A stretch of DNA of 64,000 nucleotides from a virus. The stretch covers positions 1-64,000 of IMG/VR virus record IMGVR_UViG_3300027969_000001, one strand, 5' to 3'. The position numbers and the translations under genes were made by a program. Of the stretch, positions 45,548 to 63,094 are shown piece by piece. The notes under the pieces were generated by a model, which saw nothing but the letters and a program-made list of their open reading frames with translations, was not told where the DNA came from and did no database searches. The first letter of the stretch is position 1; the number at the start of each line of letters is the position of its first letter.

Positions 45548-45628
45548 ACTTTTTTATCTCTACCCCCATGCTCGCCACACGCCCTTCTGCGTTGGAGCCC
45601 CGATGTTGCCGAGCAGTGCCGGGGCTCC
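45548..45628. repeat. Element C1 (left arm + core, 17-nt spacer)
   Basis: GGAGCCCCG 45594, CGGGGCTCC 45620. Confidence 0.85.
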
Positions 45629-45662
45629 TATGGGAAAGGGGACTTATCTATTACAGATAGTT

Positions 45663-46145
45663 TTATTTTTCTCGTTTGGGAACCATAAGAACTTCCCATA
45701 GTCCATTTTTGATTTTGCGAAATAATGGAGATTCTTTGAGGTAGGTCAAAGTTGTCTGGTAAGAGAATCCTGATTGTTCTGTGAGTTGGTCAGATGTAAA
45801 TTGCTCTGCCTGATGTTCGCTTGACCACTGCTCAAATGCTGACCACTTATCTTTGCGCTTCTCTGTGCGTTCTACTTCTACCTGTGCGTCAGATAGTCCG
45901 ATGAATGTTGATAGAAGGTACTTTGATACTTCTGCCTGCACCGAGTATGTACTTAGGTACGATTGTGGTACACGCTGTCCACCTTCTCGTTGCCAAATCT
46001 GCAATACATAAAGTCCTCTGTTTATTTCAGAAACATAAGAAACTTCCGAGAACGGAACTGCTGTTGCGTTTTTGTATTTTTTGAGAAGCACTGCCCAATG
46101 TTCTTTGTGTACTTCTTTGATTAGGTCATCTGTAATAGTTTGCAT
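45663..46145 (-). CDS. Hypothetical protein (possible C-terminal wHTH)
   Basis: 160 aa, AAGGA RBS. Confidence 0.55.
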   Translation of the reverse strand: MQTITDDLIKEVHKEHWAVLLKKYKNATAVPFSEVSYVSEINRGLYVLQIWQREGGQRVPQSYLSTYSVQAEVSKYLLSTFIGLSDAQVEVERTEKRKDKWSAFEQWSSEHQAEQFTSDQLTEQSGFSYQTTLTYLKESPLFRKIKNGLWEVLMVPKREK

Positions 46146-46225
46146 TTTTTCCTTTTTTTTGCAGTTTCTACCGTTTAGTTTTTTTCTAAAAAATCGTTTT
46201 TTTGATAGATAAGTAAGTTGGGCTG

Positions 46226-46435
46226 TTAGTCAATAACAACCCAACTGTCCTCTCCCTTGATTAGTCCGAGACTAGACCCACTATCCCACTGCACAAACAT
46301 TGTTCCTAGTGAATCAAAGTCGGTAATGACCCCTTCATCTCCTTTGGATAGTTTGGTGTGAATGTCAGATGTGTAAATCAGCCTGATTCTCCTGCCAATA
46401 AGTGCTTCTAGTCCTGCTGACAACTTATCTATCAT
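46226..46435 (-). CDS. DUF4314-like small protein
   Basis: G.RIRL..TSD.HT.L..GDEG.I...D..G...VQWDSGSSLGLI.GED. Confidence 0.65.
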   Translation of the reverse strand: MIDKLSAGLEALIGRRIRLIYTSDIHTKLSKGDEGVITDFDSLGTMFVQWDSGSSLGLIKGEDSWVVID

Positions 46436-46586
46436 GCTGGCTCTTTCTCTTGTAACGCGATGATTCGCATGTCTAATAGAAAATCTGTCATTTCTAATGA
46501 CGAAACAATGTCTCTGCCTGAACAGTGGGAGATTGCTTTGTCAATCAACAAGACGATTGGTGACTTATCTATTACAGATTCTTCAC

Positions 46587-46826
46587 TCATTCTGCGTACC
46601 CGTAAATAACCATGTCAAGTTCGTTGCCTTCTTCATCGGTGTACTTCTTCTTTCCCTCTCCTGCACAGTCGTCAAAGTATTCATCGGCTTCCAACATAAT
46701 CATTTCCATGATGTCATCAAAGTCGGGCTTCTCATCGTTGTCCTCTCTGAATCGCTTTGCCGTTTCTGCCACATCAAATGTGACAGTATTGGTGCGAGTT
46801 ACTGTGATTGTTTTTGGCTCAGACAC
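46587..46826 (-). CDS. Hypothetical acidic protein
   Basis: GTG start lies within motif A. Confidence 0.55.
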   Translation of the reverse strand: MSEPKTITVTRTNTVTFDVAETAKRFREDNDEKPDFDDIMEMIMLEADEYFDDCAGEGKKKYTDEEGNELDMVIYGYAE

Positions 46827-46830
46827 TTAT

Positions 46831-47499
46831 CTATTCCTCATCTTTCTTTTTCTTAGCGTTACCAAGTAGGTCGTGGTAACGGTGAGCAACTACGGCGAGT
46901 TTCATGTAGGCAGTGGTAGCACCCATAGCCTCAACCATGCGTCCGTACTCCTGACCTTCTTTTACTTCGCTTACATCTGCCATGTAATCTTCTTCCGAAT
47001 ACACAGGAACTCCAAAGTCATCGTAGCGATACATTTGAGTAGCACTACCAATCAACGAACCATCCCAGTCCATGCCAGTAACAACGATTGCTTCACGGAC
47101 TTCTGAAAAAGGATTCTCTGAAAAGTCTTTCTGCATTTCGCCACGCTCAAAGTCAATTTCTTCTGATGTGTCTGCACTACGGCAGAAACCCTCTACACAG
47201 AGAAAGAGGAAAGAGAACTCACGGATAGGCATAGCCTTGACTACATCTTCGTACGCCTCTAATACATCTTCACGGTGAATGAGTGGAATCATTGCAATCT
47301 TGTATGGAGAAGATAATTCGTTTTCTTCCTGATACTCAACTGCATCTTCGTCATCGCTCTTGTAAGCAACGAGCATGAGTGGGGGAGTGTCTGTCATCCC
47401 CTCGTCTTTGCACATTTGCTCTTTGGCGTACTTAGTACGGTCAAGAACATCCAGCATTATTTTTGACATTTCTTCTGAAATGGTTTCGTTGATAGCCAT
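46831..47499 (-). CDS. Hypothetical protein
   Basis: Start moved to MAINE (AAGGAG RBS), downstream of promoter B. Confidence 0.65.
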   Translation of the reverse strand: MAINETISEEMSKIMLDVLDRTKYAKEQMCKDEGMTDTPPLMLVAYKSDDEDAVEYQEENELSSPYKIAMIPLIHREDVLEAYEDVVKAMPIREFSFLFLCVEGFCRSADTSEEIDFERGEMQKDFSENPFSEVREAIVVTGMDWDGSLIGSATQMYRYDDFGVPVYSEEDYMADVSEVKEGQEYGRMVEAMGATTAYMKLAVVAHRYHDLLGNAKKKKDEE

Positions 47500-47530
47500 T
47501 GGCTTTCTCCTTGTTGGTAGGTGTGCAGTC

Positions 47531-47557
47531 ATCGTACCAGTACAGGTACAGAACTAC
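47531..47557 (-). promoter_or_regulatory. Motif B promoter
   Basis: GTAGTTCTGTACCT-N7-TACGAT. Confidence 0.75.
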
Positions 47558-47559
47558 AA

Positions 47560-47766
47560 CTATCCAAGCAACCCCTGAATGGGGAGACTTAGTGCGTCAC
47601 TTAGCGAGACAAGAGTGTCCACGCTCGGCGAATAATGTTGGTTCTCAATACGGTTCACCGTTTTTCGTTCCAGCCCTGCTCGCTTTGCTAGTTCCTCTTG
47701 TGACCAGCCTCTTTCTTTTCTTTCAGTTTTTAGCCGTGTGGCAATTACTTCTGTTGCGTTTCCCAT
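47560..47766 (-). CDS. XRE-family HTH regulator
   Basis: LKTERKERGWSQEELAKRAGLERKTVNRIEN..YSPSVDTL. Confidence 0.9.
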   Translation of the reverse strand: MGNATEVIATRLKTERKERGWSQEELAKRAGLERKTVNRIENQHYSPSVDTLVSLSDALSLPIQGLLG

Positions 47767-47800
47767 GTTGTTTCCTCTCTTGGGGACTTATCTATTTAGT

Positions 47801-48457
47801 TCAGAATGACGGAATGAAACTCTGAAACACCTTTCTCCTTTTATTTCCCCTTCTCCATGCCACATACTCCCTGATAGTGGCATCCAAATCTATGTCATGC
47901 TGGTCAGTGATGAGATTGCGCCATTCACTTTGTGCTTCGTAGAACTCGTCATACAACTCGTCAAGCCCTGATTCTGACGCTTTTTCGTACATCTGTATCA
48001 GTTCAGGTGGTTGCGTCATGTCACACATGTCCTCTGCAATCTTTTCGCCGTCACAGTAAAGTTCCCAACCAGCGTAGAAATCTGCTTCTTCTGTGCAACT
48101 GTACCCAAATACCAATTTAGGGAACTGCTTGCTGATGTTCTCAATCAACTTGTCACATGGACTCCATGCGCTCGTGTAGCGCAGATGTAGTGGGTACGAA
48201 TCTTTATCGTCAATCTCTATGTCACAAGCACCCCACTTGCTTCCCCACACGCCAAGTGCGCCACCAAAGAAAGAATCAAGTTTGTCCACCCATTCACTCT
48301 CGTCAGGGATAGGTACTAGATGGTTCATGTCATAGTGAGCGTTTATCTTGCGCCCTAGTTCATCATAATCTTCGGGCATTGAGATTGCTTTGAGAAACTT
48401 ACGAGTTTCTGTTTTGTTCCCTGCAACAACAAGGTTTGAGAAGCACCAGTTTGGCAT
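47801..48457 (-). CDS. MPNWC-type (Api92/DUF1281-like ferredoxin-fold) protein
   Basis: MPNWC start, WGSKW, YTSAWSP, QFPKL.F motifs. Confidence 0.7.
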   Translation of the reverse strand: MPNWCFSNLVVAGNKTETRKFLKAISMPEDYDELGRKINAHYDMNHLVPIPDESEWVDKLDSFFGGALGVWGSKWGACDIEIDDKDSYPLHLRYTSAWSPCDKLIENISKQFPKLVFGYSCTEEADFYAGWELYCDGEKIAEDMCDMTQPPELIQMYEKASESGLDELYDEFYEAQSEWRNLITDQHDIDLDATIREYVAWRRGNKRRKVFQSFIPSF

Positions 48458-48491
48458 GGTAGTCCTTTCGGGTTAGTGGTGGTATGCAATG

Positions 48492-48518
48492 AGCGTACCA
48501 GCACAGGTTCAGAACTAC
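48492..48518 (-). promoter_or_regulatory. Motif B promoter
   Basis: GTAGTTCTGAACCT-N7-TACGCT. Confidence 0.7.
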
Positions 48519-48601
48519 TCGGGGGGACTTATCTATTACTCATCCACCACCGTCATTGACTAACGAGCAAAAGTTTTCTATCTCATCCCCCAAGATTTTT
48601 G

Positions 48602-48693
48602 ACTTTTCTATCTCTACCCCCCATGCGCCGATTTTTTCTCTTTTTCGCCGTGTTCCGAAGGAGCCCCGACCAGTTTGGTTCGCCCCGGGGCTC
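48602..48693. repeat. Element C2 (left arm + core, 17-nt spacer)
   Basis: GAGCCCCG 48661, CGGGGCTC 48686; extra arm near 48572. Confidence 0.85.
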
Positions 48694-48715
48694 TTTTGGG
48701 AAAAGGACTTATCTA

Positions 48716-49039
48716 TTACATAGGGAGAGTTACGAGTTGTGCCGAGTGGATGTACCAGCCGTAAGCGTGACGGTGTGTCATGTAGTGCAGTAGTTCCTTG
48801 ACATCGGTAAGGTGCGTGAACACATCTTCCAACGGAACGCCGTGGCTATCAAAGAATCCACGCTCGGGCTTGGGTGAGAACGAGATGTACATGTTCTCGT
48901 ATCCCTCATAAGAGCCATAAGACCTCTGTGGCTTTATCTGGCACTGCGCTCCAATAAACTTTTTTTTTGTCATCATCAGAAAGAGAGTCTTTATCAAAGA
49001 CCAAATGTGGGCGAATGACTTATCTATTACCATTCTCAT
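48716..49039 (-). CDS. Hypothetical protein
   Basis: Start moved to MRMVIDKS (ATGA overlap). Confidence 0.5.
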   Translation of the reverse strand: MRMVIDKSFAHIWSLIKTLFLMMTKKKFIGAQCQIKPQRSYGSYEGYENMYISFSPKPERGFFDSHGVPLEDVFTHLTDVKELLHYMTHRHAYGWYIHSAQLVTLPM

Positions 49040-49281
49040 GCCCTTCGCCAAACGCTGAACTGTTCGGTCAGGTCGGTACCAATCAGGGCAATAGTCAATC
49101 GTGCAATGGATTCCAGCAGTTCTTTTTCGGTAATGCCCCATTCCTCGTTAGCCCACGGGAACATCATTCCGTTCTCGTAGTCACACCAAATGTTCGCCAT
49201 TGCGCCAGCACGACTAACGCCAATGCTGTAATAGTTTTCCCATAGGATTTCATCAACTGCGTATTTGCTAGTTTTCGTCAT
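49036..49281 (-). CDS. Hypothetical protein
   Basis: Coupled ORF. Confidence 0.55.
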   Translation of the reverse strand: MTKTSKYAVDEILWENYYSIGVSRAGAMANIWCDYENGMMFPWANEEWGITEKELLESIARLTIALIGTDLTEQFSVWRRA

Positions 49282-49483
49282 TTTGTACTTCCTCTGCTAC
49301 GTGCGATGAAATCGTGTCTGCAATTTTTGAGAAATCTACACCAAACGATGCTTTCCATCTGTCCAGTACAACTTCCATCGCAAGGTTCGCAACTTCTTCC
49401 GTAGAAAGATTTGCCGAGTCAATGCTCAGCACTTCCCTTACTGTTGCTGGTCCAACTATTGCTGTTACTTCGTAAAGAGCCAC
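49268..49483 (-). CDS. Hypothetical protein
   Basis: GTG start lies within motif A. Confidence 0.55.
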   Translation of the reverse strand: MALYEVTAIVGPATVREVLSIDSANLSTEEVANLAMEVVLDRWKASFGVDFSKIADTISSHVAEEVQNDEN

Positions 49484-49487
49484 TTAT

Positions 49488-49715
49488 CTATTCCTCATCT
49501 TCATAGTCGCTGTCCACGGAGAACCAGCGCATCACTGTTAGAAGCAGGTTATCGTAATCGCCCGATGTTGCTTCGGCACGAAACGCCTCTATCTCATCGG
49601 CAGTCAATCCTGCTCGCCGAGCAATTCTCTGCACACGCCCAAGTATGGAGAAGGCGTTGCCGTCCTCTCCTACTAGTGGAATGTTGATGTGTGGGTATTT
49701 TGTATCTGTACTCAT
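49488..49715 (-). CDS. Conserved phage hypothetical protein
   Basis: LVGEDGNAFSILGRV...EATSGDYDNLL pattern. Confidence 0.7.
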   Translation of the reverse strand: MSTDTKYPHINIPLVGEDGNAFSILGRVQRIARRAGLTADEIEAFRAEATSGDYDNLLLTVMRWFSVDSDYEDEE

Positions 49716-49927
49716 TCTGAGTGTTCTCCTGTTTCCATGTCAATAGCGTAAGCATCTTCCAACTTGGCTCCTGCCAAGCCTGCAACATTCCTGCCGAATG
49801 TTCTAGCCATTTTGCCTGCTTCTTTTAGGCTCTTGGCTTCTACGGTGGTATCTTCTGTCCACTCGGCAAGACCAATCTTTTCCTGCTTTGTCAGCAGAGC
49901 GATTATTTCGTATTCTTTTGTTGCCAT
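49712..49927 (-). CDS. Hypothetical protein
   Basis: Start moved to MATKE (AAGGGG RBS). Confidence 0.55.
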   Translation of the reverse strand: MATKEYEIIALLTKQEKIGLAEWTEDTTVEAKSLKEAGKMARTFGRNVAGLAGAKLEDAYAIDMETGEHSE

Positions 49928-49958
49928 TACTTTCCCCTTTGTGGTTGGCTTCGCCTTC

Positions 49959-49985
49959 ACTGTACCACAAGAGGTACGGAACTAC
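49959..49985 (-). promoter_or_regulatory. Motif B promoter
   Basis: GTAGTTCCGTACCT-N7-TACAGT. Confidence 0.75.
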
Positions 49986-50002
49986 AAGGGGGACTTATCT
50001 AT

Positions 50003-50314
50003 TCATGAACAGAGGTAGTCAAGCCACAGTACGAGAATGTCCAACGGCTCTGACATTGACGGAAATGCGTCCGAGGCTAGGAACTGGAAGTCCGAGAACA
50101 TCAACTCGTTCGTCTCCGTGTAACGGTTGCACCCACCTTCTCCCATGTTGTACACGGTCAGGAACTCCACACCATTGCGTGAGACAACTGCCTTCCAGTA
50201 AATCCCTCGGTCATGTTCGCTCTCCTCTTGTAGAGCAAACCTGTACCCCATCTTGTCAGGGCGCAGTTCGTCAGGAACGCTGTCAAAGATTTCTTCTATG
50301 TTTAGGTCAGTCAT
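50003..50314 (-). CDS. Hypothetical protein
   Basis: Start moved to MTDLN; N.GEGGCNRY motif. Confidence 0.55.
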   Translation of the reverse strand: MTDLNIEEIFDSVPDELRPDKMGYRFALQEESEHDRGIYWKAVVSRNGVEFLTVYNMGEGGCNRYTETNELMFSDFQFLASDAFPSMSEPLDILVLWLDYLCS

Positions 50315-50437
50315 GTTTTTTAGTGTAGATAGATTTATCCGAAAAGTCAATCAGCAGACTCATCCACCACCGTCAATTGCTAACGGCGACTTTTTTATCG
50401 CGACCCCCAGCTCGACCGACGAATTCGCAAAAAATCA

Positions 50438-50512
50438 ACTTTTTTATCCCGACCCCCCAGATTTTTGCCCTGTTCCGAAAGAGCCCCGGACGGACCAGCG
50501 CAGGCGGGGCTC
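50438..50512. repeat. Element C3 (left arm + core, 16-nt spacer)
   Basis: GAGCCCCG 50481, CGGGGCTC 50505; second arm at 50389. Confidence 0.85.
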
Positions 50513-50594
50513 CAATGGAGAAGATGGGACTTATCTATTACATAGAGCAATCTCCCCTGCCGAGCGCAAGGGAGACTACTGAATAGATAAGTGG

Positions 50595-50912
50595 TCACTC
50601 GGTCAGGAGATAATGCCCACCACGCCTCTCGTATTGAGCAGTAGCCTCAGTAACGGTTTCACGGTAATCACCATTCTCCATGTGCCAACCTTCGGGACGG
50701 TCTACGGCGTTCCACACTGCGAACGGGTGAAGCGTGTTGTGTGGCAAGAGACAGAGAACAACCCACACGGCGTAAGCGTCAATGTCAGACGGGCGAGAGA
50801 GCCAGCAAGCGAGAATGGTGACAGGATTACTGCCACTGCTAGGAGTGAATGTGTCACCCACTTTCAGCAATCGCATTGGGTATGTCTCGGTAGGGGACTT
50901 ATCTATTGACAT
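50595..50912 (-). CDS. Hypothetical protein
   Basis: Start MSIDKS overlapping upstream stop. Confidence 0.55.
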   Translation of the reverse strand: MSIDKSPTETYPMRLLKVGDTFTPSSGSNPVTILACWLSRPSDIDAYAVWVVLCLLPHNTLHPFAVWNAVDRPEGWHMENGDYRETVTEATAQYERRGGHYLLTE

Positions 50913-51355
50913 TACTCGCCACCCAACCAAGCGTTCATCTGCTCATCTGTCATCTCGGTAATGGTTGGTCTGAAATCCATTTCAGCGATTTCTTTGGTCA
51001 GCATTTCTTTGATGACTTCCATCTCTGCGATTTCTTTCGCAAAGTCAAAAAAGCGTCCTGATGTGTAGGTTGCTGGAATGTCGTGGTTCTCTCCGTCATA
51101 CTCGCCACGCTCGTTGAGAGAGCCGATTACAACGCAGTCACCCACAAGTGGACGCTGGAACAACATAGACGCTACGGCGTTCACTGGTAGCCCGATAAGC
51201 AATCCTTCGTCATGGACATAGCCCACGATTTCTTCGCCTCGTACACAGTCAAACCAGCCACCCACGATTTCGTGAATGAGTGTGTGACCGTTCTCGCTTG
51301 GTATGTCCTGCGTGAATACTTCACCTGTGGACTTGATGATTATTGCTGTTGCCAT
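50912..51355 (-). CDS. DUF3846-like protein
   Basis: IVGGWFD.V, HDEGLL.GLPVN..AS, LVGD.V..G. Confidence 0.7.
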   Translation of the reverse strand: MATAIIIKSTGEVFTQDIPSENGHTLIHEIVGGWFDCVRGEEIVGYVHDEGLLIGLPVNAVASMLFQRPLVGDCVVIGSLNERGEYDGENHDIPATYTSGRFFDFAKEIAEMEVIKEMLTKEIAEMDFRPTITEMTDEQMNAWLGGE

Positions 51356-51385
51356 GATGGCTCTCCTTGTTTGGTAGGTGTTGAT

Positions 51386-51412
51386 AGCGTACCACTGTGG
51401 GTACAGAACTAC
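51386..51412 (-). promoter_or_regulatory. Motif B promoter
   Basis: GTAGTTCTGTACCC-N7-TACGCT. Confidence 0.7.
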
Positions 51413-51470
51413 TGGTGGACTTATCTATTGAGTAGTGGGGACTTCTCCCCACTACTCGCAGATGAATTGG

Positions 51471-51875
51471 TTAGACGGCTTCTGCTTTGCTCGCAGGCTT
51501 GACTGAACCTTTGGCAGGCTTCACGAGAACTCGCACACTGTTCGTGATTTCCACGCAGGACTTGATGACCTTCTTGGTGATTTCGCCCTTGCCTACTGCG
51601 CTGTCCCACGCCTTAGTGTCAATCGCTGGCTTGGTGACCTTGCGAAACAATGCTGGCGAAAGTTGCTCACGCAATTTCTCAACAGAGAACGAACGGCGTT
51701 CTGCTGGCGAGACTTTGACATTCAGTTCTGCGAACTCGGCTTCGCTCACGCCTGCGATTGCGAATGTTGCGATAAGCAACTCTCTCGCTTCGTCATGCGC
51801 CTGCTCGGCTTGCTCTTTGGCTGTTAGAGCAGTGAGAAAAGCCTCTACTGCTTGGTTGATTGTTTCTGCTTCCAT
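51471..51875 (-). CDS. Hypothetical protein
   Basis: Start moved to MEAET (AAAGGGG RBS). Confidence 0.6.
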   Translation of the reverse strand: MEAETINQAVEAFLTALTAKEQAEQAHDEARELLIATFAIAGVSEAEFAELNVKVSPAERRSFSVEKLREQLSPALFRKVTKPAIDTKAWDSAVGKGEITKKVIKSCVEITNSVRVLVKPAKGSVKPASKAEAV

Positions 51876-51918
51876 GATGTACCCCTTTCGTGGGTGTGTA
51901 TCGCTTGTGGTACCCACA

Positions 51919-51945
51919 AGCGTACACGGTCAGGTACAGAACTAC
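51919..51945 (-). promoter_or_regulatory. Motif B promoter
   Basis: GTAGTTCTGTACCT-N7-TACGCT. Confidence 0.75.
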
Positions 51946-51997
51946 AACCTTTTGACTTATCTATTTACAACTCCCCTCAACCCCTCACGGTTAGCCT

Positions 51998-52140
51998 CTT
52001 ATTTATCACGACCCCCCATGCCTCGCCTCTCCTTTTCGCCCCTTCTCGGTTGGAGCCCCGTTCTAGTCGGGCATCATCGGGGCTCCCTTCGGCAAACCCC
52101 CCGATAGGCAAGTTCGCATGGGGAGTAGAGATAGAAAAGT
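51998..52140. repeat. Element C4 (both arms, 17-nt spacer)
   Basis: Core 52052-52086. Confidence 0.85.
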
Positions 52141-52408
52141 GAACGATTTGGATAAGCGCAGACTGGCTCGGATTTATGCTCGGCTCACAGAAGTAGAACG
52201 GCTAGTGAGTGCCGTGCGTCTGCTCAACAGTCAGACACGGGCAAGGTTAGAGCGAAGCAAGTTCGTACTCGTGGAGAACGACTTATCTATTCAGGTAGAA
52301 AACCAAAAAAGGGAGACTCATCTGTAATAGATAAGTCTCCCTCTTTGTTGGTGTGGGCGTTTCCCTTCTGAAAGGAAGGGGGGACAGAGGTACTAAGCCC
52401 TCGCTCAA

Positions 52409-52828: not shown

Positions 52829-52871
52829 TTGGTTTCTCCTGCCAGCCTTGTAGGTGGGTGCTGACTCGCAT

Positions 52872-52898
52872 ACCGTACCACTCAAGGTACAGACCTAC
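52872..52898 (-). promoter_or_regulatory. Motif B promoter
   Basis: GTAGGTCTGTACCT-N7-TACGGT. Confidence 0.75.
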
Positions 52899-52915: not shown

Positions 52916-53043
52916 ACATTTTTATCTCGCCCCCCCGTCCCTCGCCATGTGTTCGCAAGAAAGCCCCGACCTAGTTCGTTATCAACGGGGCTCATTCCGA
53001 AACGAGAGAACAAGAGCGCACTTGGGGGTTGAGATAGAAAAGT
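52916..53043. repeat. Element C5 (both arms, 17-nt spacer)
   Basis: Core 52962-52993. Confidence 0.85.
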
Positions 53044-53808: not shown

Positions 53809-53898
53809 ACTTTTTTATCACGACCCCCAAGCCCCTCGTTCGCCCTCGCCTTGGCGTGTTCGGAAAGAGCCCCGGGCATTTCGCCAACGGCGGGGCTC
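53809..53898. repeat. Element C6 (left arm + core, 16-nt spacer)
   Basis: Core 53867-53898. Confidence 0.85.
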
Positions 53899-54825: not shown

Positions 54826-54826
54826 G

Positions 54827-55237: not shown

Positions 55238-55378
55238 ACTTTTTTATCACGACCCCCCATGCTCACAAAAGCGTCAAAAAAGACGCTTTCTGTTGGAGCC
55301 CCGACCTCGCTCGTTTCCATCGGGGCTCCCCTCGTGCGTGACGCTTTGCTCGCATGACGGGGGTAGAGATAGAAATGT
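55238..55378. repeat. Element C7 (both arms, 17-nt spacer)
   Basis: Core 55295-55329. Confidence 0.85.
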
Positions 55379-55850: not shown

Positions 55851-55851
55851 G

Positions 55852-56340: not shown

Positions 56341-56373
56341 GTCTTACCCCTTCTAAGTAGTTTGACTACTCGT

Positions 56374-56400
56374 ACAATACCAGCAAAGGTACGGAACTAC
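56374..56400 (-). promoter_or_regulatory. Motif B promoter
   Basis: GTAGTTCCGTACCT-N7-TATTGT. Confidence 0.75.
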
Positions 56401-56528
56401 TAGGGGACTTATCTATTCAGTATCGGCTCGCAGTATCCACTCGGATACGCTCGCAGTTGGCTCGCATACTTCGCTCGGACTTATCTATTCAGTAATCACC
56501 CACGCCTCGCACCTACCAGCACCAGCAC

Positions 56529-56612
56529 TCTTTTTTATCTCTACCCCCGTTGCGCCCCCACCCGTCACTTCTCGGTGGGGGCCCCGTTCGCGCTGAGTCA
56601 TGCCGGGGCTCC
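56529..56612. repeat. Element C8 (left arm + core, 17-nt spacer)
   Basis: Core 56578-56612. Confidence 0.8.
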
Positions 56613-56681
56613 CATCGGGCGCAAGGTCAAGCCTTGACCTACCCGTGAGAGTAAGTCAAGGCGAGACTATCTAGCACTTAT

Positions 56682-57116
56682 CTATTCAGGAAAGGCGCTA
56701 GCCCTTGCGAGTAATCCCGTAAGTATGCCGTCAGCGTAGTAGTCAGGCGCTGTGCCGTCTAGGTACTTGCCCAATGAGGCTAGGACTGTGCGCTCAAACT
56801 CGGCGAAGGACTTATCGCCGTAGCGCCCCACCGCTTGCGTGGCAAACTTGGTAGCAGGGTAGGTAGCGAAGTCAAAGACGGTAAATGATGTCACGCTCAT
56901 GGTGGCGTGTGGTTGCCAGTGAACTAGACGGATAGTTGCCTCATACTGCTTGCGCTTAGCGTCATGGCTGAACTCAAGTTCTATTTGCTCACCCCACAAG
57001 TCATTGCTGTGGACATGCGGAATGTCTACCTTTGAGGACTGCCAACGGTAGGTGACCTCACGGTCACGCTCACGGCGCTTGGCTTGCGCTAGTAGGTTGG
57101 TGGTTGCTGTGGTCAT
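56682..57116 (-). CDS. Hypothetical protein
   Basis: GAAGGGG RBS; stop lies inside motif A. Confidence 0.65.
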   Translation of the reverse strand: MTTATTNLLAQAKRRERDREVTYRWQSSKVDIPHVHSNDLWGEQIELEFSHDAKRKQYEATIRLVHWQPHATMSVTSFTVFDFATYPATKFATQAVGRYGDKSFAEFERTVLASLGKYLDGTAPDYYADGILTGLLARASAFPE

Positions 57117-57148
57117 GGTTACCCCTTCATGGTTGTTTGACTACTCGC

Positions 57149-57175
57149 ATAGTACCATCGTAGGTACGGAACTAC
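57149..57175 (-). promoter_or_regulatory. Motif B promoter (leftward at divergence point)
   Basis: GTAGTTCCGTACCT-N7-TACTAT. Confidence 0.75.
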
Positions 57176-57237
57176 TGTGGGACTTATCTATTACCGATAC
57201 GCTCACGCCTCGCCACTCGGCAACCCCCGATAGTTGG

Positions 57238-57374
57238 GCTTATCTATCTCAACCCCCGTCACAGCCTCGGAGTCTCTCGGACTCTTACGGTTGGAGCCCC
57301 GTTCGCGCTCGGTTCCCTCGGGGCTCCCATCGGGAAGGGCGCTTCCCTACTCTTGGGGGTCGTGATAAAAAAGT
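57238..57374. repeat. Element C9 (both arms, 17-nt spacer)
   Basis: Core 57293-57327. Confidence 0.85.
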
Positions 57375-57419
57375 TTCATCTAATCGGTCAGGGTCTTTCT
57401 TTCATAGATAAGTCTCGGT

Positions 57420-57446
57420 GGAGGTTTGTACCTCACCATGTACTCT
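57420..57446 (+). promoter_or_regulatory. Motif B promoter (rightward at divergence point)
   Basis: GGAGGTTTGTACCT-N7-TACTCT. Confidence 0.7.
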
Positions 57447-57487
57447 GTGTCCAGTTGGGGGATGGTCTCCCAGCAGGAAGGGATGCC

Positions 57488-58009
57488 ATGTTCGGTGTTG
57501 TTCAGCAGTTGGAGGACGAAGAGGTGCAGGCTCGCACTGTGCTTTTCGTTTACGAAGTCAAAGAGGAAGGCGATGCACTCGCTGTGGTTGGAACATTCCA
57601 CCCCAACTTCTTTGACCAAGACATTGTCAATCTCATCAAGGAAGAGCGCCAGTGCTCTTACAACCAAGCAGAGGACGACGAGCAGGGTTCAGCGATGGAA
57701 GCCTGTGGTTGCATTTGGTGCCTCACCGAAGGCACGGGCTATCTCAATTGGGGAAGCAACGGATGGGATGACATTCCGAGAGGGTTCGCATTTGTGCAGT
57801 TTCCAAAAAGCGCTGCAATCGCCGAAGGCTCGCTCATTCTTGTTGAAGGCAAGTGGCTCTCCGAGGACATCCACGGCGTTTCGGAAACCAAGTCCGTTAT
57901 CAACTACGAGACCACAATGGTGGAGACCTCGCATGGCACCTACCCCGAAGCCGAGTGCCTTGCAGTTGAGCATTGGGAGTTGCTACCAGCACTCCCAGCC
58001 AATCGGTAA
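57488..58009 (+). CDS. Hypothetical protein
   Basis: Start moved to MFGVV (GAAGGGA RBS); stop overlaps motif A. Confidence 0.6.
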   Translation: MFGVVQQLEDEEVQARTVLFVYEVKEEGDALAVVGTFHPNFFDQDIVNLIKEERQCSYNQAEDDEQGSAMEACGCIWCLTEGTGYLNWGSNGWDDIPRGFAFVQFPKSAAIAEGSLILVEGKWLSEDIHGVSETKSVINYETTMVETSHGTYPEAECLAVEHWELLPALPANR

Positions 58010-58069
58010 TAGATAAGTCATCAACCACTCTGAGTGAAAGAAGAACTCGCTCAGAGTGATGACCAAGGA

Positions 58070-58146
58070 AGCCCCGGCTCGCTCGTTCCCAACGGGGCTC
58101 CCTTGCGCTTCGCTTGCTTCGGTGGTGGGGGTCGTGATAAAAAAGT
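58070..58146. repeat. Element C10 (core + right arm, 16-nt spacer)
   Basis: Core 58070-58100. Confidence 0.85.
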
Positions 58147-58202
58147 CTGCTCCTCGTTGCGAGGGAGAAGCTCGGGTTATCTGTAATAGATAAGTACCCC
58201 TA

Positions 58203-58229
58203 GCAGTTCTGTACCTATTGGGTTACTAT
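58203..58229 (+). promoter_or_regulatory. Motif B promoter
   Basis: GCAGTTCTGTACCT-N7-TACTAT. Confidence 0.7.
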
Positions 58230-58267
58230 TGAGTGACCACATAACACTTTCCTGAAGGGGGAACTAA

Positions 58268-58681
58268 ATGTCAAAAATAGATTATGACGGAATACAACTT
58301 TCGTACGAGGCTCAAGTTATTGAGTCAGATAAAAAGTTGCTTGATGCTTTACTTGATGCCGTGAAAGATGAAGAACTTGCACCTTTCACATTCCACATGG
58401 AGTGGGTCATCTGTGATTACTGCCGTGGCAACGGTGGACACTCTCGCCGTTTCGGTGCAATGAGTTCAGAAGAGTTTGCAGAGTGGAGCGATGAGTCTCG
58501 TGAAGCGTACTTGCGTGGTGCTTACGATGACCGTTGTGAAGCGTGTGATGGAAGTGGAAAGGTCTATGAGATGAACGAAGGCGCATTGCCTGAAGAAGTT
58601 ATTGAGTTCATTGACAACTACCGTCAGTACGCATTTGATAGCGCATCTGAAAGTCGTGCTGAACGAATGGCAGGTTGCTGA
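58268..58681 (+). CDS. Protein with DnaJ-type CxxCxGxG Zn finger
   Basis: CDYCRGNG and CEACDGSG. Confidence 0.7.
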   Translation: MSKIDYDGIQLSYEAQVIESDKKLLDALLDAVKDEELAPFTFHMEWVICDYCRGNGGHSRRFGAMSSEEFAEWSDESREAYLRGAYDDRCEACDGSGKVYEMNEGALPEEVIEFIDNYRQYAFDSASESRAERMAGC

Positions 58682-58920
58682 TGTTTACTTACCGTGTAAC
58701 TGTTCAGGTCACGCTTGATGTTGAGGCAGAAGATGACGATGGAGCAATGGCAGTAGCAATGCAGAATGTCAGTGCTCGCATAGGCGATGACCGTACAACA
58801 CCTCTCCACGAAAGAACTGATGCAATGTGGGTGACAGGCATTGCTGAAAGAGATTACGAATACTTTTGTTACAAGCAACCATTCCCACTATGGGTAATAG
58901 ATAAGTCAGAGGACTACTAA
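58681..58920 (+). CDS. Hypothetical protein
   Basis: Coupled ORF; ends VIDKSEDY (motif A in frame). Confidence 0.55.
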   Translation: MFTYRVTVQVTLDVEAEDDDGAMAVAMQNVSARIGDDRTTPLHERTDAMWVTGIAERDYEYFCYKQPFPLWVIDKSEDY

Positions 58921-58922
58921 TC

Positions 58923-59213
58923 ATGAATAACAAAAGCGATAGTTATTACACACTTAGGTCTGTCATTCGTTTTATCTTTTGGGGAACGATACTCGCAGTA
59001 ATCATGTGGATTGTTACAACATCTATTGCAGTTTTTGCATCTGATGAAACACCCGATTGTGATGTGACATTAGAGCGTGACTTCACATGGAACGCTCGTG
59101 AGTTCGCAGTGCTCAATCCAACCAAGACGCTTGCAGATTGCCGTCATTACCAAAGCGTTGTTCTCAATGAGAACGGCACATGGGAATGGTACGACCCATA
59201 CATGGACTCATAG
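58923..59213 (+). CDS. Membrane-anchored hypothetical protein
   Basis: N-terminal TM; GAGGA RBS. Confidence 0.55.
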   Translation: MNNKSDSYYTLRSVIRFIFWGTILAVIMWIVTTSIAVFASDETPDCDVTLERDFTWNAREFAVLNPTKTLADCRHYQSVVLNENGTWEWYDPYMDS

Positions 59214-59314
59214 AAAGGATTGATTATGGTTTTTTTATTTGTTATTGCAGTAACGCTTGCAGTTCTAATAGCAATAGTTCGTGACGATAGATGGTGGTGA
59301 ACACTTATCTATTA

Positions 59315-59626
59315 CTAATCAAACGAACGAGACACTGGTAAGTCGCATTGCAAACAATCGTAATGTGCAAGTGTCTTTTTTGTTTTTCTCTTGACGATGT
59401 ACGCAGATGAAAGATGACCACCACCTTCGTACTCACTCAACAATGCTTGATGCGTTTTTATCTCTTCGCTGTTGAGACCTAAGTCCTCGGCGCAGTACGC
59501 ACAGATGTAGCCATCGGCAATCTCGTCATAGATGACAGATGTAGTCATGTCATCTTGCTCGTACTCATCAGAGAACTGGTTGGTGCTAGTTGCAAAGTAC
59601 GGTTGGAGTGCTTTTGTTTTTTTCAT
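59315..59626 (-). CDS. Zn-binding hypothetical protein, inverted relative to neighbours
   Basis: CAYC and CLQC; GAGGA RBS; flanking motif A copies also inverted. Confidence 0.6.
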   Translation of the reverse strand: MKKTKALQPYFATSTNQFSDEYEQDDMTTSVIYDEIADGYICAYCAEDLGLNSEEIKTHQALLSEYEGGGHLSSAYIVKRKTKKTLAHYDCLQCDLPVSRSFD

Positions 59627-59878
59627 TTTTTCCTCTCACCTCTTATGAGGTTGCTTGTGTTTTACAATCGGACATTTTTTCTTACATCTTTTACAAGAGT
59701 CCTTGCATCTCTTTATGTCAAAAGTTTTTGTCCGTTACCTATTAGACGTGTCATCGTCTCCGTTTCTGAAAACGATGCTCGCAGTTGATAGAAGCGTCAT
59801 CTTGATACGAAAACGAAACGACTTATCTATTCAGTAATAGAAAGCAGGCTTCGCTCGGAGAAAGTAAGCGAGTCAGCA

Positions 59879-60015
59879 ACTTTTCTATCTCTACCCCCGT
59901 TGCAAGGCAGTTATGCCAGCGCATGGGAGCCCCGATGCTGTTCGCTCCTAACGGGGCTTCTACCTCGCGCGCGTGACGCCGAGAGCAGCAAGCTTGGGGG
60001 GTCGCGATAAATAAG
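59879..60015. repeat. Element C11 (both arms, 17-nt spacer)
   Basis: Core 59926-59958. Confidence 0.85.
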
Positions 60016-60148
60016 CAAGATTTCAGCTGGGAGCTGGGAGCTGGGAGCTGGCGAAATAAGGGATAGATAAGTGGTTTAAATCTTTTACAAAACTGACCGA
60101 TTGCAAAACGCAACTCCTTGCAAATAAAGGGTTTGCGGTCGTAAAAAT

Positions 60149-60175
60149 GTAGGTTTGTACCTACTTTTGTATAAT
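60149..60175 (+). promoter_or_regulatory. Motif B promoter with consensus -10
   Basis: GTAGGTTTGTACCT-N7-TATAAT. Confidence 0.8.
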
Positions 60176-60219
60176 CCGCGCACGCCCACAACCACCACAA
60201 CAACCCACAAGGAGCCCAC

Positions 60220-60321
60220 ATGAAGCCACACGATAAGAACAGCCGCCCACCTACCTCATTCGTAGGCGGCGCAGGTCATTGGAATAAGCGCGGCAAATCA
60301 AAGCCAAAAGATAAAAAGTAA
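60220..60321 (+). CDS. Basic 33-aa peptide (not in ORF track)
   Basis: AAGGAG RBS; MKPHDKNSRPPTSFVGGAGHWNKRGKSKPKDKK. Confidence 0.5.
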   Translation: MKPHDKNSRPPTSFVGGAGHWNKRGKSKPKDKK

Positions 60322-60348
60322 TTCGGACAAAGGAAGGAACCACACCCG

Positions 60349-60957
60349 ATGAACACACACCCACACCACGCAGCAGTAGTAGACGCAATCAAGGCGCTAC
60401 CTGCTTACACAGACCCGCAGACATTCTTTGAGTCAGAACTAGCCGAGTGCTACTCAGACGAGGAGCTTGTAGAAACATTCGGCTGGGACGGAGACAAGGC
60501 GCTCACAATCAAGCAGGCGCTCAAAGCAGTCAAGGAGCTTTGCGAGCTTCGTCAAGATGTTTACGGCTGGATTATTGAGGAAGGCGACCGAGAGCGCGAA
60601 GCAGAGCAAGAGGCGTACAAGCGCTGGCGCGAAGAACAAGAGGCAGCTAGCCGTTGTGGTTGGCTCGTAGAGCGCTCATGGGAAGCAGCTTTCCCATTCG
60701 TGCCGAACCCCGAATACACAGATGAGGAGAACGCCGAACACAGGCAGTGGCACGGTGAAAGCCTCGGTGAACGAGCAGCAGAGTCAGGCAACCGCTACGC
60801 AATCGTTGATTGTGGTGCGAAGCTCGCAGATGTCATTCGCAACGGCGTGCGAGTTGGTTGGGAGTGCGAAGCAGGTCACCGTTCCATCAGCATGGAACAC
60901 ATGACGCAAGAGGAGCAGGACGAGCAATACCGCTTGGATTACGAGGACAGCTACTAG
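60349..60957 (+). CDS. Hypothetical acidic protein
   Basis: 202 aa ORF. Confidence 0.65.
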   Translation: MNTHPHHAAVVDAIKALPAYTDPQTFFESELAECYSDEELVETFGWDGDKALTIKQALKAVKELCELRQDVYGWIIEEGDREREAEQEAYKRWREEQEAASRCGWLVERSWEAAFPFVPNPEYTDEENAEHRQWHGESLGERAAESGNRYAIVDCGAKLADVIRNGVRVGWECEAGHRSISMEHMTQEEQDEQYRLDYEDSY

Positions 60958-61036
60958 CCACCTCTTGGAATAGATAAGTTCTCCCCACGCCCCCACCCCC
61001 CCTTCCATCAGGGGCGTGGGGTTTATCGCAGGGACA

Positions 61037-61068
61037 AGCCCCGTTCGGGTTCGTTTCCGTCGGGGCTC
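61037..61068. repeat. Element C12 (core only, 17-nt spacer)
   Basis: AGCCCCG 61037, CGGGGCTC 61061. Confidence 0.8.
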
Positions 61069-61090
61069 TCATCGTTAGCGCGAAATGTCC

Positions 61091-61117
61091 GTAGGTCTGT
61101 ACCTCCCCGGGTACTCT
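61091..61117 (+). promoter_or_regulatory. Motif B promoter
   Basis: GTAGGTCTGTACCT-N7-TACTCT. Confidence 0.75.
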
Positions 61118-61123
61118 GTGGCC

Positions 61124-61453
61124 ATGACAAAAAAACACTTCACCGATTACACCAAAGCCGAAGCATGGGCCGAGAAAAACAACCTCGCCCTAGAACCCAT
61201 CGGAACCTGCTGGGAGGAGCACACAGTGGCCTCATGGAAGAGCGATACCACCCGTATCGAAATATGGATTCAGGAGATGGAATACGCAGCAGAGCACGAG
61301 CGTGGCGGATACATCCCTTGCCTTGTGGATTGCCCTGTAGTCCTCGTGTGGGACGGCCTAGAGGCCAATGCGCCCTACACGCTCCACCCTGACTTCTGCA
61401 CGCTCACAGAGGCTCGCAAGGGCTTCGATGAGTTGGTCAGGCAAGCGAGTTAG
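61124..61453 (+). CDS. Hypothetical protein, probably leaderless
   Basis: ATG follows the -10 hexamer after 6 nt; no RBS. Confidence 0.6.
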   Translation: MTKKHFTDYTKAEAWAEKNNLALEPIGTCWEEHTVASWKSDTTRIEIWIQEMEYAAEHERGGYIPCLVDCPVVLVWDGLEANAPYTLHPDFCTLTEARKGFDELVRQAS

Positions 61454-61571
61454 ACACCCGGTGAACTTTTTCTCCCCGGCACGAAATTCCCTGCCGGGGA
61501 GAAATTCCGGCGGGTTTTTTCTTCACCGGAATTTCTTGCCGGAATCGGAAAGATTTTGCGCTAATGGTAGA

Positions 61572-61670
61572 AGCCCCGTTCTCGTTCGTTCTCTATTGTT
61601 TCGAACGGGGCTCTCATCGGCTCGGGTGTTCGGCGCGAACAACACGCGATGGGGGTTGTGATAGATAAGT
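61572..61670. repeat. Element C13 (core + right arm, 27-nt spacer)
   Basis: Core 61572-61613. Confidence 0.85.
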
Positions 61671-61697
61671 GTAGGTCTGTACCTGACCAGGTACGAT
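61671..61697 (+). promoter_or_regulatory. Motif B promoter
   Basis: GTAGGTCTGTACCT-N7-TACGAT. Confidence 0.75.
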
Positions 61698-61737
61698 GCT
61701 TGTACGGCGGGAAGTACCCGCCCATGAAGGGAAAGTC

Positions 61738-62019
61738 ATGAAGCAAGTAACAATCACATGGAAAGCGTTCGGCGAACCAACATCGGCTGCACTCGCGCTT
61801 GACACGAGCGCAAGCGCGTTGGAGATATGCGATGCAATATTCCACCAAACGAATGTTTACGCTGGTCCGATATGGGACGAACTGGAACCGCTCCTGCCAG
61901 CCACACGCACACACACTGCGCTTTCAGTTGGAGACGAAGTCACAGTTGATGGCGAAGTGATTCGGTGCGAGCCAATGGGTTGGGCTACCAGGTTCATCGC
62001 TGACGCTCTTACTGAATAG
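61738..62019 (+). CDS. Hypothetical protein
   Basis: Start moved to MKQVT; ALSVGDEVTVDG..CEPMGW motif. Confidence 0.6.
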   Translation: MKQVTITWKAFGEPTSAALALDTSASALEICDAIFHQTNVYAGPIWDELEPLLPATRTHTALSVGDEVTVDGEVIRCEPMGWATRFIADALTE

Positions 62020-62040
62020 ATAAGTCCCCCCAGCGGAGAA

Positions 62041-62067
62041 CCCCACCTCACTCGGGTGGGGTTCTTC
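62041..62067 (+). terminator. Possible intrinsic terminator
   Basis: CCCCACC-TCACTCG-GGTGGGG then TTCTT. Confidence 0.45.
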
Positions 62068-62080
62068 CCGTTCTCAAGAC

Positions 62081-62158
62081 AGCCCCGTGGCTGTTCGGCA
62101 CGAACGGGGCTCTCATCGGCGAGCGAGCGAGAATGATTGGGGGTCGCGATAGAAAAGT
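62081..62158. repeat. Element C14 (core + right arm, 17-nt spacer)
   Basis: Core 62081-62112. Confidence 0.85.
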
Positions 62159-62175
62159 TTCCAAAAGAAAAGGTT

Positions 62176-62202
62176 GCAATCCTGTACCTGCTGTGGTACG
62201 AT
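62176..62202 (+). promoter_or_regulatory. Motif B promoter (degenerate)
   Basis: GCAATCCTGTACCT-N7-TACGAT. Confidence 0.6.
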
Positions 62203-62231
62203 TTCATCAGACCAGTAGAAGGGGTTGACCA

Positions 62232-62531
62232 ATGAGGAAAGAGACACGCTCTCTCAAAAAGAAAGCCGAAGGCCTAGGCATTTCGGTAGATGAATTAGTT
62301 GAGGAAATGGAAGTCGGGAATCCCGACAAATCGTTCGTCATAACTGTGGCCTTTGACCGATACAAAGATTTGCGTTCGTTCGCAGACGAAATCGCTCAGA
62401 GAATGGGTCTCGCAATTTATCAGGCCGATTCACTTGACCACGAATACAACGGCAGTGTGCGAGACGGAATGTTCGTCCTGCGAGACCCGAACGGTTTCCA
62501 CGGCAAACCAGACCATTGGAGGGTTGACTAG
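62232..62531 (+). CDS. Hypothetical protein
   Basis: GAAGGGG RBS. Confidence 0.6.
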   Translation: MRKETRSLKKKAEGLGISVDELVEEMEVGNPDKSFVITVAFDRYKDLRSFADEIAQRMGLAIYQADSLDHEYNGSVRDGMFVLRDPNGFHGKPDHWRVD

Positions 62532-62552
62532 TGGTGATAGATAAGTCCCCTT

Positions 62553-62579
62553 GTAGTTCTGTACCTTATGTAGTACGCT
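62553..62579 (+). promoter_or_regulatory. Motif B promoter
   Basis: GTAGTTCTGTACCT-N7-TACGCT. Confidence 0.75.
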
Positions 62580-62605
62580 CTGTTCAGACCACGGAAGGGG
62601 TTTCC

Positions 62606-62908
62606 ATGATAACAACGGAAAAATTCGAGATGCTCAAAGAGCAACTGGAAGCATCAACAGACCAGATGAAGAAAATGGTAGAGGCGCTAAGAACGCCAAC
62701 ACCATGCGATTGCTGCTTCTCAGACGAGGAGAACGCTGAGAATTATCGCGATTTTGAGAACGCAGTTCGCGACCTCTCTAACGAATGTCAAGAGATTGCG
62801 ATGAAGGCCTACGATTGCTACATGGCCATCACCCGCGCTCCACTGGAAATTGCGCTCGCACAACTGGATGCGATGCAAGAGGGCTACCGCCTCCTCGCCG
62901 AACAATAG
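62606..62908 (+). CDS. Hypothetical helical protein
   Basis: Start moved to MITTE (GAAGGGG RBS). Confidence 0.6.
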   Translation: MITTEKFEMLKEQLEASTDQMKKMVEALRTPTPCDCCFSDEENAENYRDFENAVRDLSNECQEIAMKAYDCYMAITRAPLEIALAQLDAMQEGYRLLAEQ

Positions 62909-63005
62909 GTAATAGATAAGTCCCCCGAGCACCCCCCGCTCGGGGGATTTTCTTTGCCCGTGACCCAGCCCGTACTTGTAATAGATAAGTCCCCTGTTGT
63001 GATGA

Positions 63006-63094
63006 AGCCCCGTCTTCGGCGGAGTCCGTTCGTCTCCGACGGGGCTCTCATCGGCGAGCGAGCGAGAGTGCATTGGGGGTCGTGATAAAAAAGT
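63006..63094. repeat. Element C15 (core + right arm, 27-nt spacer)
   Basis: Core 63006-63047. Confidence 0.85.

Follow-up and report, generated by a model that had tools for sequence, protein, structure and literature searches.

The promoter-early stem-loop (PeSL) cassettes of T4-type phages contain a stem-loop that has been read as the terminator of the preceding gene (PMC2839356, PMC4122927). The present article concerns a repeat in a similar setting, element C, in an uncultured lake phage whose complete record of 158,714 bp has terminal repeats (IMG/VR record IMGVR_UViG_3300027969_000001); its first 64 kb are referred to as the window. An earlier note, made from the letters of the window, had described element C as a palindromic core, AGCCCCG-spacer-CGGGGCT, accompanied by outer sequences called arms. 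Comparison with relatives shows it to be an ancient cis-element, under strong constraint, that belongs to the early promoters of a clade of uncultured phages. As judged from sequence, there is about an even chance that it is a protein-bound, DNA-level cis-regulatory module upstream of these promoters. Element C belongs to no described family; its logic appears most like that of the phi29 p4 sites and its setting most like that of the PeSLs.

The p4 sites, named after the phi29 regulator that binds them and reportedly described by Badia et al. in 2006, are said to lie between promoters A2b/A2c and A3 and to consist of inverted half-sites around a 15-bp spacer of free sequence. They reportedly stand tens of bp upstream of promoters, and between divergent ones, and act through a multi-protein complex on bent DNA. 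Short inverted half-sites with a long free spacer, upstream of promoters and between divergent ones, are also features of element C. The spacing is fixed in phi29, whereas here it is 15–20 bp and more, and both the sequences and the protein are unrelated, no search for p4 or p6 homologues having been made.

With the PeSLs the element shares its composite, intergenic nature, its place among the variable early genes of a large myovirus, and a palindrome upstream of an early host-type promoter, the order core, arm, promoter (motif B, below) being found at most transcription units; copies coincide with some insertions or deletions of cassettes. In PeSLs the whole motif is conserved, whereas here only 7 + 7 bases around a free spacer are invariant, there is no U-tract, copies occur between divergent promoters, and outer arms stand at a fixed distance. 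The nucleotide search of phage records gave no match, and no sequence relation to the PeSLs was seen, the core itself not having been aligned to the T4/RB49 PeSL consensus. The genome is not of the T4 type: besides baseplate J, tail sheath, portal and collagen-like fibres it encodes giant polyvalent virion proteins and an HK97-type capsid.

Three repeats of mycobacteriophages are also comparable. The extended start-associated sequences (ESAS) of Cluster K have little support as an mRNA hairpin, and their function is unknown (PMC3203893). They resemble element C in occupying a non-structural region of actinobacteriophages, in consisting of inverted repeats whose spacer varies, just upstream of a short, asymmetric motif that goes with the gene downstream, and in a consensus that differs between subclusters. 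Their half-sites, however, are 17 bp long and imperfect, with a spacer of 4–13 bp and the partner motif at the translation start, whereas those of element C are 7 bp long and invariant, and the partner arm lies ~30 bp away, upstream of a promoter. The 17-bp dyad repeat of Cluster O, also of unknown function, has invariant 7-bp inverted repeats and more than 30 copies per genome, mostly intergenic (PMC4351075). The invariant 7-bp repeats, the mostly intergenic position and a centre without consistent orientation are shared with element C; the 3-bp spacer, the spread over the whole genome and the lack of arms are not. The stoperators of Cluster A, for which repressor binding and a block of elongation have been shown (PMC9283540, PMC6550527), are short sites without symmetry, which occur in dozens of copies, run in the same direction as transcription and are specific to a lineage. 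In this they recall motif A and the outer box of the arms described below, not the core. No lysogeny module was found in this phage.

Architecture of the small-gene array

Element C is housed in a 20-kb array of small genes, bordered on the left by genes for a vWA protein (43098–44645) and an AAA_5 ATPase (44648–45373) and on the right by a SNF2 helicase gene at 66.5 kb. Gene polarity is leftward to ~57.3 kb and rightward beyond. The exact pattern AGCCCCG-N-CGGGGCT has 14 matches, at 45596–63046, and none in 100 dinucleotide shuffles. Together with a 15th core at 56580, in which the left half-site is GGCCCCG, these reproduce the 15 copies of the earlier note, and the spacer lengths that it gave, 17 bp in ten, 16 in three and 27 in two, were found again. 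Counting a 16th core just past the window, at genome position 64213, the spacing is 17 bp in 11 of 16 cores (Table 1). Of the half-site CGGGGCT, AGCCCCG on the other strand and called the heptamer below, the window contains 33 copies where 4.6 would be expected, and in the 158.7-kb genome there is a single copy outside 38–65 kb; it is thus concentrated in the array and avoided elsewhere. Half-cores at 42347 and 42383, which lie inside an open reading frame (ORF), were left out of the counts.

Table 1. Positions of the cores of element C in the window and of two genes for candidate reader proteins
Feature	Position	Strand	Spacer (bp)	Arms	Remarks
Core 1	45596..45626		17	one, left, 45549-45567	
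Core 2	48662..48692		17	one, left, 48603-48622	
Core 3	50482..50511		16	left, 50439-50458	second, distal arm copy 50390-50408
Core 4	52054..52084		17	two, 51998-52017 minus, 52120-52139 plus	
Core 5	52962..52992		17	two, 52917-52936 minus, 53024-53042 plus	
Core 6	53868..53897		16	one, left, 53810-53828	
Core 7	55297..55327		17	two, 55239-55258 minus, 55359-55377 plus	
Core 8	56580..56610		17	one, left, 56530-56548	only variant half-site (GGCCCCG)
Core 9	57295..57325		17	two, 57239-57257 minus, 57355-57373 plus	divergent promoters; point of polarity flip
Core 10	58070..58099		16	one, right, 58127-58145	separate hairpin upstream
Core 11	59928..59958		17	two, 59880-59898 minus, 59996-60015 plus	divergent genes 59315-59626(-) and 60349-60957(+)
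Core 12	61037..61067		17	none	motif B promoter directly after; hairpin-plus-T terminator upstream
Core 13	61572..61612		27	one, right, 61651-61669	upstream terminator 61490-61514
Core 14	62081..62111		17	one, right, 62139-62157	with core 13 flanks a gene inverted in relatives
Core 15	63006..63046		27	one, right, 63075-63093	arm abuts motif B promoter; upstream terminator 62932-62946
Candidate heptamer reader	41847..42227	+			126 aa; HA domain and sigma-70 region 4 helix-turn-helix
Candidate reader of motif A and arm outer box	47560..47766	-			68 aa; XRE-family helix-turn-helix protein, inside the array

The arm pattern GGGG(G)-N-GATARAWAAG has 20 matches, all in the array region, one of them the distal second copy beside the core at 50482. 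Among the 16 cores, five have two arms (52054, 52962, 55297, 57295 and 59928), nine have one and two have none. The number of two-armed copies is that of the earlier note, and its remark that a lone arm faces the downstream gene is true of every single-armed core. Every two-armed copy in this phage combines one TCGTGATAAAAAAG-type and one TAGAGATAGAAAAG-type arm. From core edge to GATA the distance is 33–40 bp (n = 11) or 45–49 bp (n = 8), so that two distance clusters, as noted before from a reference point 4 bp away, are present here.

Read with transcription, a gene is followed by motif A (AATAGATAAGT), which often includes the stop codon, and in some cases by a hairpin with a T-run; then come core and arm, up to three more copies of motif A, motif B, a leader and the start codon. 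Motif B is TTGnnn, 17 bp, TAnnnT (for example TTGTAG, 17 bp, TACGCT) and, when checked by eye, fits a promoter of the host sigma-A type. Arm and core precede most motif B promoters, with four exceptions, and many copies have the arm directly against the -35 of motif B. Motif A has a T-rich complement, ACTTATCTATT, which in the terminator scan comes up repeatedly as the tail of small antisense-strand hairpins (motif A copies at 45444–63681); motif A beside a hairpin may therefore be the A-tract of bidirectional terminators.

The right-hand arms at 52120, 53024 and 55359, in the leftward half of the array, head short rightward units (52118–52350, 53024–53185 and 55359–55530) that end at bidirectional terminators with motif A in their loops. 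These units contain a 69-aa ORF or ~100–150 nt without a clear ORF, and the stretches after the arms at 53024 and 55359 are alike (GAGTTC..GGGTTGCG.AACTT). The arms are not the start of a conserved peptide (ATG GGG GGT CGT/AGA GAT...): the G-run, 4–7 long, shifts the frame, ATG is missing in many arms, and TGA stands at the Arg position in two. Nor is it supported that the arms are promoters themselves. Comparison by eye with the sigma-28 -10, the T4 late promoter TATAAATA and the extended -10 gave no consistent -35 or TAnnnT, and none of the large ORFs scanned encodes a phage RNA polymerase able to read them.

Conservation across the clade

Relatives were collected by means of the portal, the vWA gene, the core-plus-arm pattern and the gene for a helix-turn-helix (HTH) protein discussed below; the portal gave 80 contigs at 62–74% identity. 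Scans of the collection with the bare core pattern yielded, among the matches listed, unrelated single matches. The syntenic array holds 15 cores in the complete genome G001 and 13 in the complete genome G002, and G006 and G017 have partial arrays. By tblastx the left 11 kb of the array are collinear in this phage (G000), G001 and G002, with protein identity of 45–88%, and within this stretch the cores stand at orthologous junctions. The alignment comprised 54 cores, and the arm set 72 arms, each from five genomes.

In the aligned cores all seven pairs are invariant, except for one G-for-A, and none of the seven shows a compensatory change. The identity of the spacers is 0.36 between orthologous and 0.32 between non-orthologous cores, and that of the 30 bp flanking the cores 0.41 and 0.38. 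With an invariant word, no compensatory change and spacers that are unalike, selection acts on the word and the lengths, and not on pairing or on the content of the spacer. Spacers as conserved 'addresses' were rejected on these values, orthologous spacers being taken as no more alike than non-orthologous ones. The 5-mers GTTCG (13 against 2.1 expected) and GCTCG are enriched in the spacers.

The spacers of the 54 cores measure 16 bp (9 cores), 17 (17), 18 (13), 19 (8), 20 (1), 24 (2), 25 (2) and 27 (2), and further lineages add 15, 28, 45 and 48 bp. Single genomes can be tight, with 18 bp in 9 of 13 cores of G002 and 17 bp in 6 of 6 of the L302 lineage, or broad, as in G001 (16–25 bp). The earlier note had seen steps of ~10 bp in the spacers and had regarded a continuous distribution in a larger set as incompatible with them. 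The larger set largely goes against such steps: across the clade the lengths from 15 to 20 bp are gapless, with others at 24–28 and 45–48 bp. Strict 10-bp phasing fails, and the argument for helical phasing is weak. With nothing shorter than 15 bp and a tail to 48 bp, the lengths fit two independent back-to-back sites that must not clash.

The first and last bases of the spacer are the same (G..G, C..C, T..T or A..A) in 35 of the 54 cores, against 27% expected (p = 5e-9), as in the core at 50482–50511. An identical base inside both half-sites means that the palindrome never extends to an eighth pair. Each core of the G/C type contains exactly one CCGG.

The anatomy of the arm is the same in all five genomes: a G-run, 3–10 nt, and a box that copies the motif A of that genome. 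The box reads GATARAWAAGT, GTAGATAAGT, GGTARAWAAGT, GAGAGATAAGT or CAGGTAGGT, while the inner core word is constant; the resemblance of the outer end of the arm to motif A, first noted in this phage, thus follows motif A from genome to genome. The G-run starts 28–31 bp from the core in 42 of the 72 arms, with a tail, and, among the 18 arms of G002, at 29–30 bp in 15. The second distance class, ~9 bp further out, is clear only in the genome of this phage, and the sequence between core and arm has no conservation.

The heptamer is also found in other architectures. The G004/L237 lineage has a lone CGGGGCT, whose nearest 60 nt contain no partner and which is followed by an arm or immediately by a promoter. 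The complete, more distant genome G003 (portal 66%) has no motif A, and its ~60 promoter copies consist of GATTTGTCGG, a GGGGTGGG box and TAAGGT; in its array (L093, L094, 28.3 kb) the ATG lies 6–8 nt past the promoter, so that the transcripts are probably leaderless. Here the heptamer occurs 52 times in 28 kb, mostly singly, at the apex of strong hairpins with unrelated stems, 9–37 nt upstream of the -35, in a 17:17 ratio of orientations. From these single and hairpin-apex versions, the unit is the single heptamer, and the palindrome is one deployment of it.

In an unbiased count of 7-mers downstream of the HTH gene, only the heptamer reached five copies or more in each of the 12 lineages sampled; pieces of motif D (TGACGGTGGTGGA) rank next. 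With its flanks (for example 42238–42262, 48540–48565, 50350–50380 and 53750–53775), motif D is a second invariant motif of the whole clade, present in 68 of 69 related loci in up to eight copies each. A putative conserved small-RNA gene at 38765–38890 begins with the heptamer (GGCCGGGGCTTC). There the heptamer may serve either as an RNA 5' end that pairs with AGCCCCG loops or as an operator.

A proposed DNA-level module and its candidate readers

In the reading to which we give even chances, the heptamer would be the functional word, set in two head-to-head copies 16–17 bp apart, rarely 27, so that each presents the same orientation to the side that it faces. About 30 bp outward, on each side that is served, follows the arm with its G-run and motif-A-like box. 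A conserved sequence-specific protein would read the heptamer as duplex DNA and a faster-evolving phage protein would read the A-like box, the two forming a complex of fixed geometry that sets or insulates one promoter in one-armed copies and two divergent promoters in two-armed copies. Since the same short words stand at every unit boundary, the modules could also act as occasional crossover points for the loss or inversion of cassettes. Conserved inverted half-sites around a spacer of free sequence, as expected of a dimeric operator, are what the cores contain. Of the protein-bound element that the earlier note proposed, the DNA-level character and the constrained geometry remain as the best reading, while the 10-bp phasing and the idea of a synapse or scaffold are left without support.

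The candidate reader of the heptamer has an HA domain and an HTH of the sigma-70 region 4 type. Its gene is present in every complete relative, including G003, and the HTH (SLR-IAD-FDLSRQRVHQI) is identical in five genomes. In 67 loci DLSRQR(V/I)HQI is unchanged while overall identity to the protein of this phage is 49–76%; the density of the heptamer is 7–12 per 10 kb in all related loci with enough downstream sequence. Recognition helix and heptamer are both invariant in all 67 loci; an invariant reader would match an invariant word. Nearly all of the 67 loci also have one or two conserved heptamers upstream of the HTH gene. Just upstream of it, at 41823–41840, is a CGAAC-N4-GTTCG box of the LexA type of Actinobacteria and Firmicutes, which is found at the same place in G001, G002 and G017.

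For motif A and the outer box of the arm the candidate is an XRE-family protein. It is only 55–58% identical in G001, G002, G006 and G017, and it is absent from G003 and G005, both of which lack motif A; low identity and absence where motif A is absent suggest it as the reader of a box that is specific to the lineage.

Several observations weigh against a module of this kind. Binding to duplex DNA does not account for the blocked eighth pair. Spacing of 15–20 bp shifts the rotation of one half-site relative to the other by up to ~170 degrees, which a hairpin loop would accommodate easily and a rigid dimer only with difficulty, and in G003 the heptamer lies inside hairpin loops, so that a folded form could matter. 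The right-hand arms at 52120, 53024 and 55359 have no recognisable motif B downstream. In this genome transcription starts at widely differing distances from the core, which makes a simple contact between activator and polymerase unlikely. Finally, motif D, being clade-wide, could equally be the target of the HA/sigma-region-4 protein.

A broader proposal, which the sequences make possible and which we hold to be doubtful, is a one-word promoter code common to the clade, with an invariant regulator on the heptamer, for which the candidate would be the HA/sigma-region-4 protein with the LexA-type box at its gene, and a fast-evolving protein on the lineage-specific motif A. It would embrace three architectures of the heptamer (armed head-to-head pairs, single copies with an arm, and copies at the tip of boundary hairpins) in more than 60 contigs of uncultured freshwater phages. 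Dozens of early promoters would then be under two-layer control, by a conserved licence and a private address, possibly coupled to the SOS state of the host.

Competing explanations and implications

The modules could instead be mainly evolutionary, PeSL-like cassettes whose repeated words let homologous or microhomology recombination delete, insert and invert gene cassettes, the palindromic core keeping a valid cassette boundary in either orientation. PeSLs have been described as doing so in T4-type phages (PMC2839356, PMC4122927), and in the array two rearrangements are bounded by cores. The core at 55297 joins the left flank of the cores at 10781 in G001 and 11187 in G002 to the right flank of those at 11946 and 12206, one cassette having been lost exactly between two cores; and the gene at 61696–62019(+) is inverted relative to G001 15041–15730 and G002 14683–15015, with cores on both sides in all three genomes. 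The right part of the array (56.6–64 kb) is mostly unrelated between genomes. In the collinear left part, however, cores have stayed at orthologous junctions despite protein identities of only 45–88%, which shows that these sites are old and stable. Ordinary homologous recombination needs more than seven to nine identical bases; gene conversion should have made the spacers uniform as well, yet these are random; and selection for evolvability explains neither the absolute invariance of the word nor its avoidance elsewhere. Where G001 has its core 7111, the corresponding junction of this phage (51355–51471) shows a terminator with motifs A and B only. The modules thus mark some points of rearrangement, as PeSLs do, in an array that is mostly collinear.

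Of the three common recombinase families none is encoded: PF00589 (Phage_integrase) gave no match in six frames of the complete genome, with positive controls, and PF00239 (Resolvase) and PF01797 (Y1_Tnp) gave none in the complete genome. The recombination synapse or packaging scaffold of the earlier note has found no support. Neither do the cores agree with known recombination sites. Integron attC sites have R''/R' sequences RYYYAAC/GTTRRRY in place of AGCCCCG/CGGGGCT, require an IntI-type tyrosine recombinase, and belong to promoterless, co-oriented cassettes, whereas the cassettes here have their own promoters and both orientations; the sites of serine invertases and resolvases are dyads with a 2-bp centre, whereas the spacers here are 16–27 bp and differ between copies. 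With no recombinase domain and most of the array stable, we read rearrangement at the cores as a side effect and not as their function, and consider a mainly evolutionary role improbable, though it is the rival that fares best.

An RNA hairpin in read-through transcripts, acting as a terminator or insulator without a U-tract, a processing site or a stabiliser of 3' ends, is unlikely. Predicted hairpins of -12 to -25 kcal/mol, the position of the cores after gene ends and before promoters, as in PeSLs, the tolerance of loop lengths of 15–20 nt, and the strong heptamer-capped hairpins of G003, which are followed by ATTTGT, would agree with it. The stems are nevertheless followed by CTCATCGG, CCCATCGG, CCAACG and similar tails with no U-tract, the loops are 16–27 nt long, and a consensus terminator scan calls other hairpins of the region and never the core palindromes. 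Separate hairpin-plus-T terminators stand upstream of the cores at 61572 and 63006 (by the scan) and at 61037 and 62081 (by eye), and the cores at 57295 and 59928 are perfect although they lie between divergent promoters, where no known transcript enters. Cores that lie between divergent promoters and behind true terminators are not terminators themselves, in agreement with the earlier note, which had denied that the core is a plain one. The 54 copies show no compensatory change. Upstream of promoters on the same strand, half of the G003 loops read CCCCG and the others CGGGG; such a random choice cannot be one RNA signal, while a duplex word readable either way can show it.

Folded single-stranded DNA, a hairpin or cruciform like those of attC, REP/RAYT or single-strand initiation signals, is less probable still. 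Conserved 7-bp arms around a variable loop and the mismatch enforced at the eighth position would suit such a structure, two-armed copies could fold arm on arm, and the array genes with DUF3846, DUF1281_C and DUF6011 resemble plasmid leading regions. No tyrosine recombinase, serine recombinase or Y1 transposase was found in the complete genome, however, and REP/RAYT systems have an associated Y1 (IS200/IS605-type) transposase. Extrusion of a cruciform is unfavourable with a centre of 16–27 nt. Some lineages have only a single heptamer, with no partner, and where one clade has the heptamer in the stem of the hairpin another has it in the loop.

The small structured RNA that the earlier note gave as its alternative, each core being a gene with a variable, target-specific loop, has in its favour the shape of a constant stem with a variable loop and the enrichment of GTTCG, and is most improbable, since cores lack a promoter or terminator of their own, loops are not kept between orthologous copies, the 54 cores show no covariation, no Rfam family or tRNA-like call was obtained, and two-armed copies occur where no known transcript passes. 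Two other likenesses were rejected. In a tRNA-like minihelix of acceptor and T-arm (7 + 17 + 7), the 17-nt centres would need a 5-bp stem, which they lack, and ARAGORN finds nothing; for a mimic of CRISPR repeats the loops are much too long.

Some other genes of the window deserve mention. All relatives keep, as a pair on the left border of the array, the vWA protein (515 aa, with a DxSxS motif) and the MoxR-like AAA_5 ATPase (43098–45373). DUF1281_C, DUF3846 and DUF6011 are found in array genes at 47801–48457, 50912–51355 and 55852–56340, and a DUF932 gene lies nearby at genome position 68917–69942; we take these domains to be typical of plasmid leading regions and anti-restriction neighbourhoods. 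The tail-fibre genes (8852–10240 and 15597–23603) have long collagen triple-helix repeats, and among them is a tryptophan halogenase gene (11647–13191, E 5e-102).

Long arrays of small early genes are carried by large uncultured phages, and element C offers a testable handle on the control of such arrays. It has an invariant 7-bp word and a geometry that can be measured, each genome supplies ~16 natural variants, and sister lineages supply versions with a single site or a hairpin; two candidate reader proteins, the HA/sigma-region-4 and the XRE protein, can be named. Should it be no more than a structural hairpin or the scar of recombination, it would remain a counterpart of the PeSL cassette outside the T4 group. 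If binding is true, it would represent a new regulator-operator pair of phages of actinobacterial hosts and would explain how dozens of promoters are switched in common, and the element would be a marker for early regions and cassette boundaries in metagenomic phage contigs.

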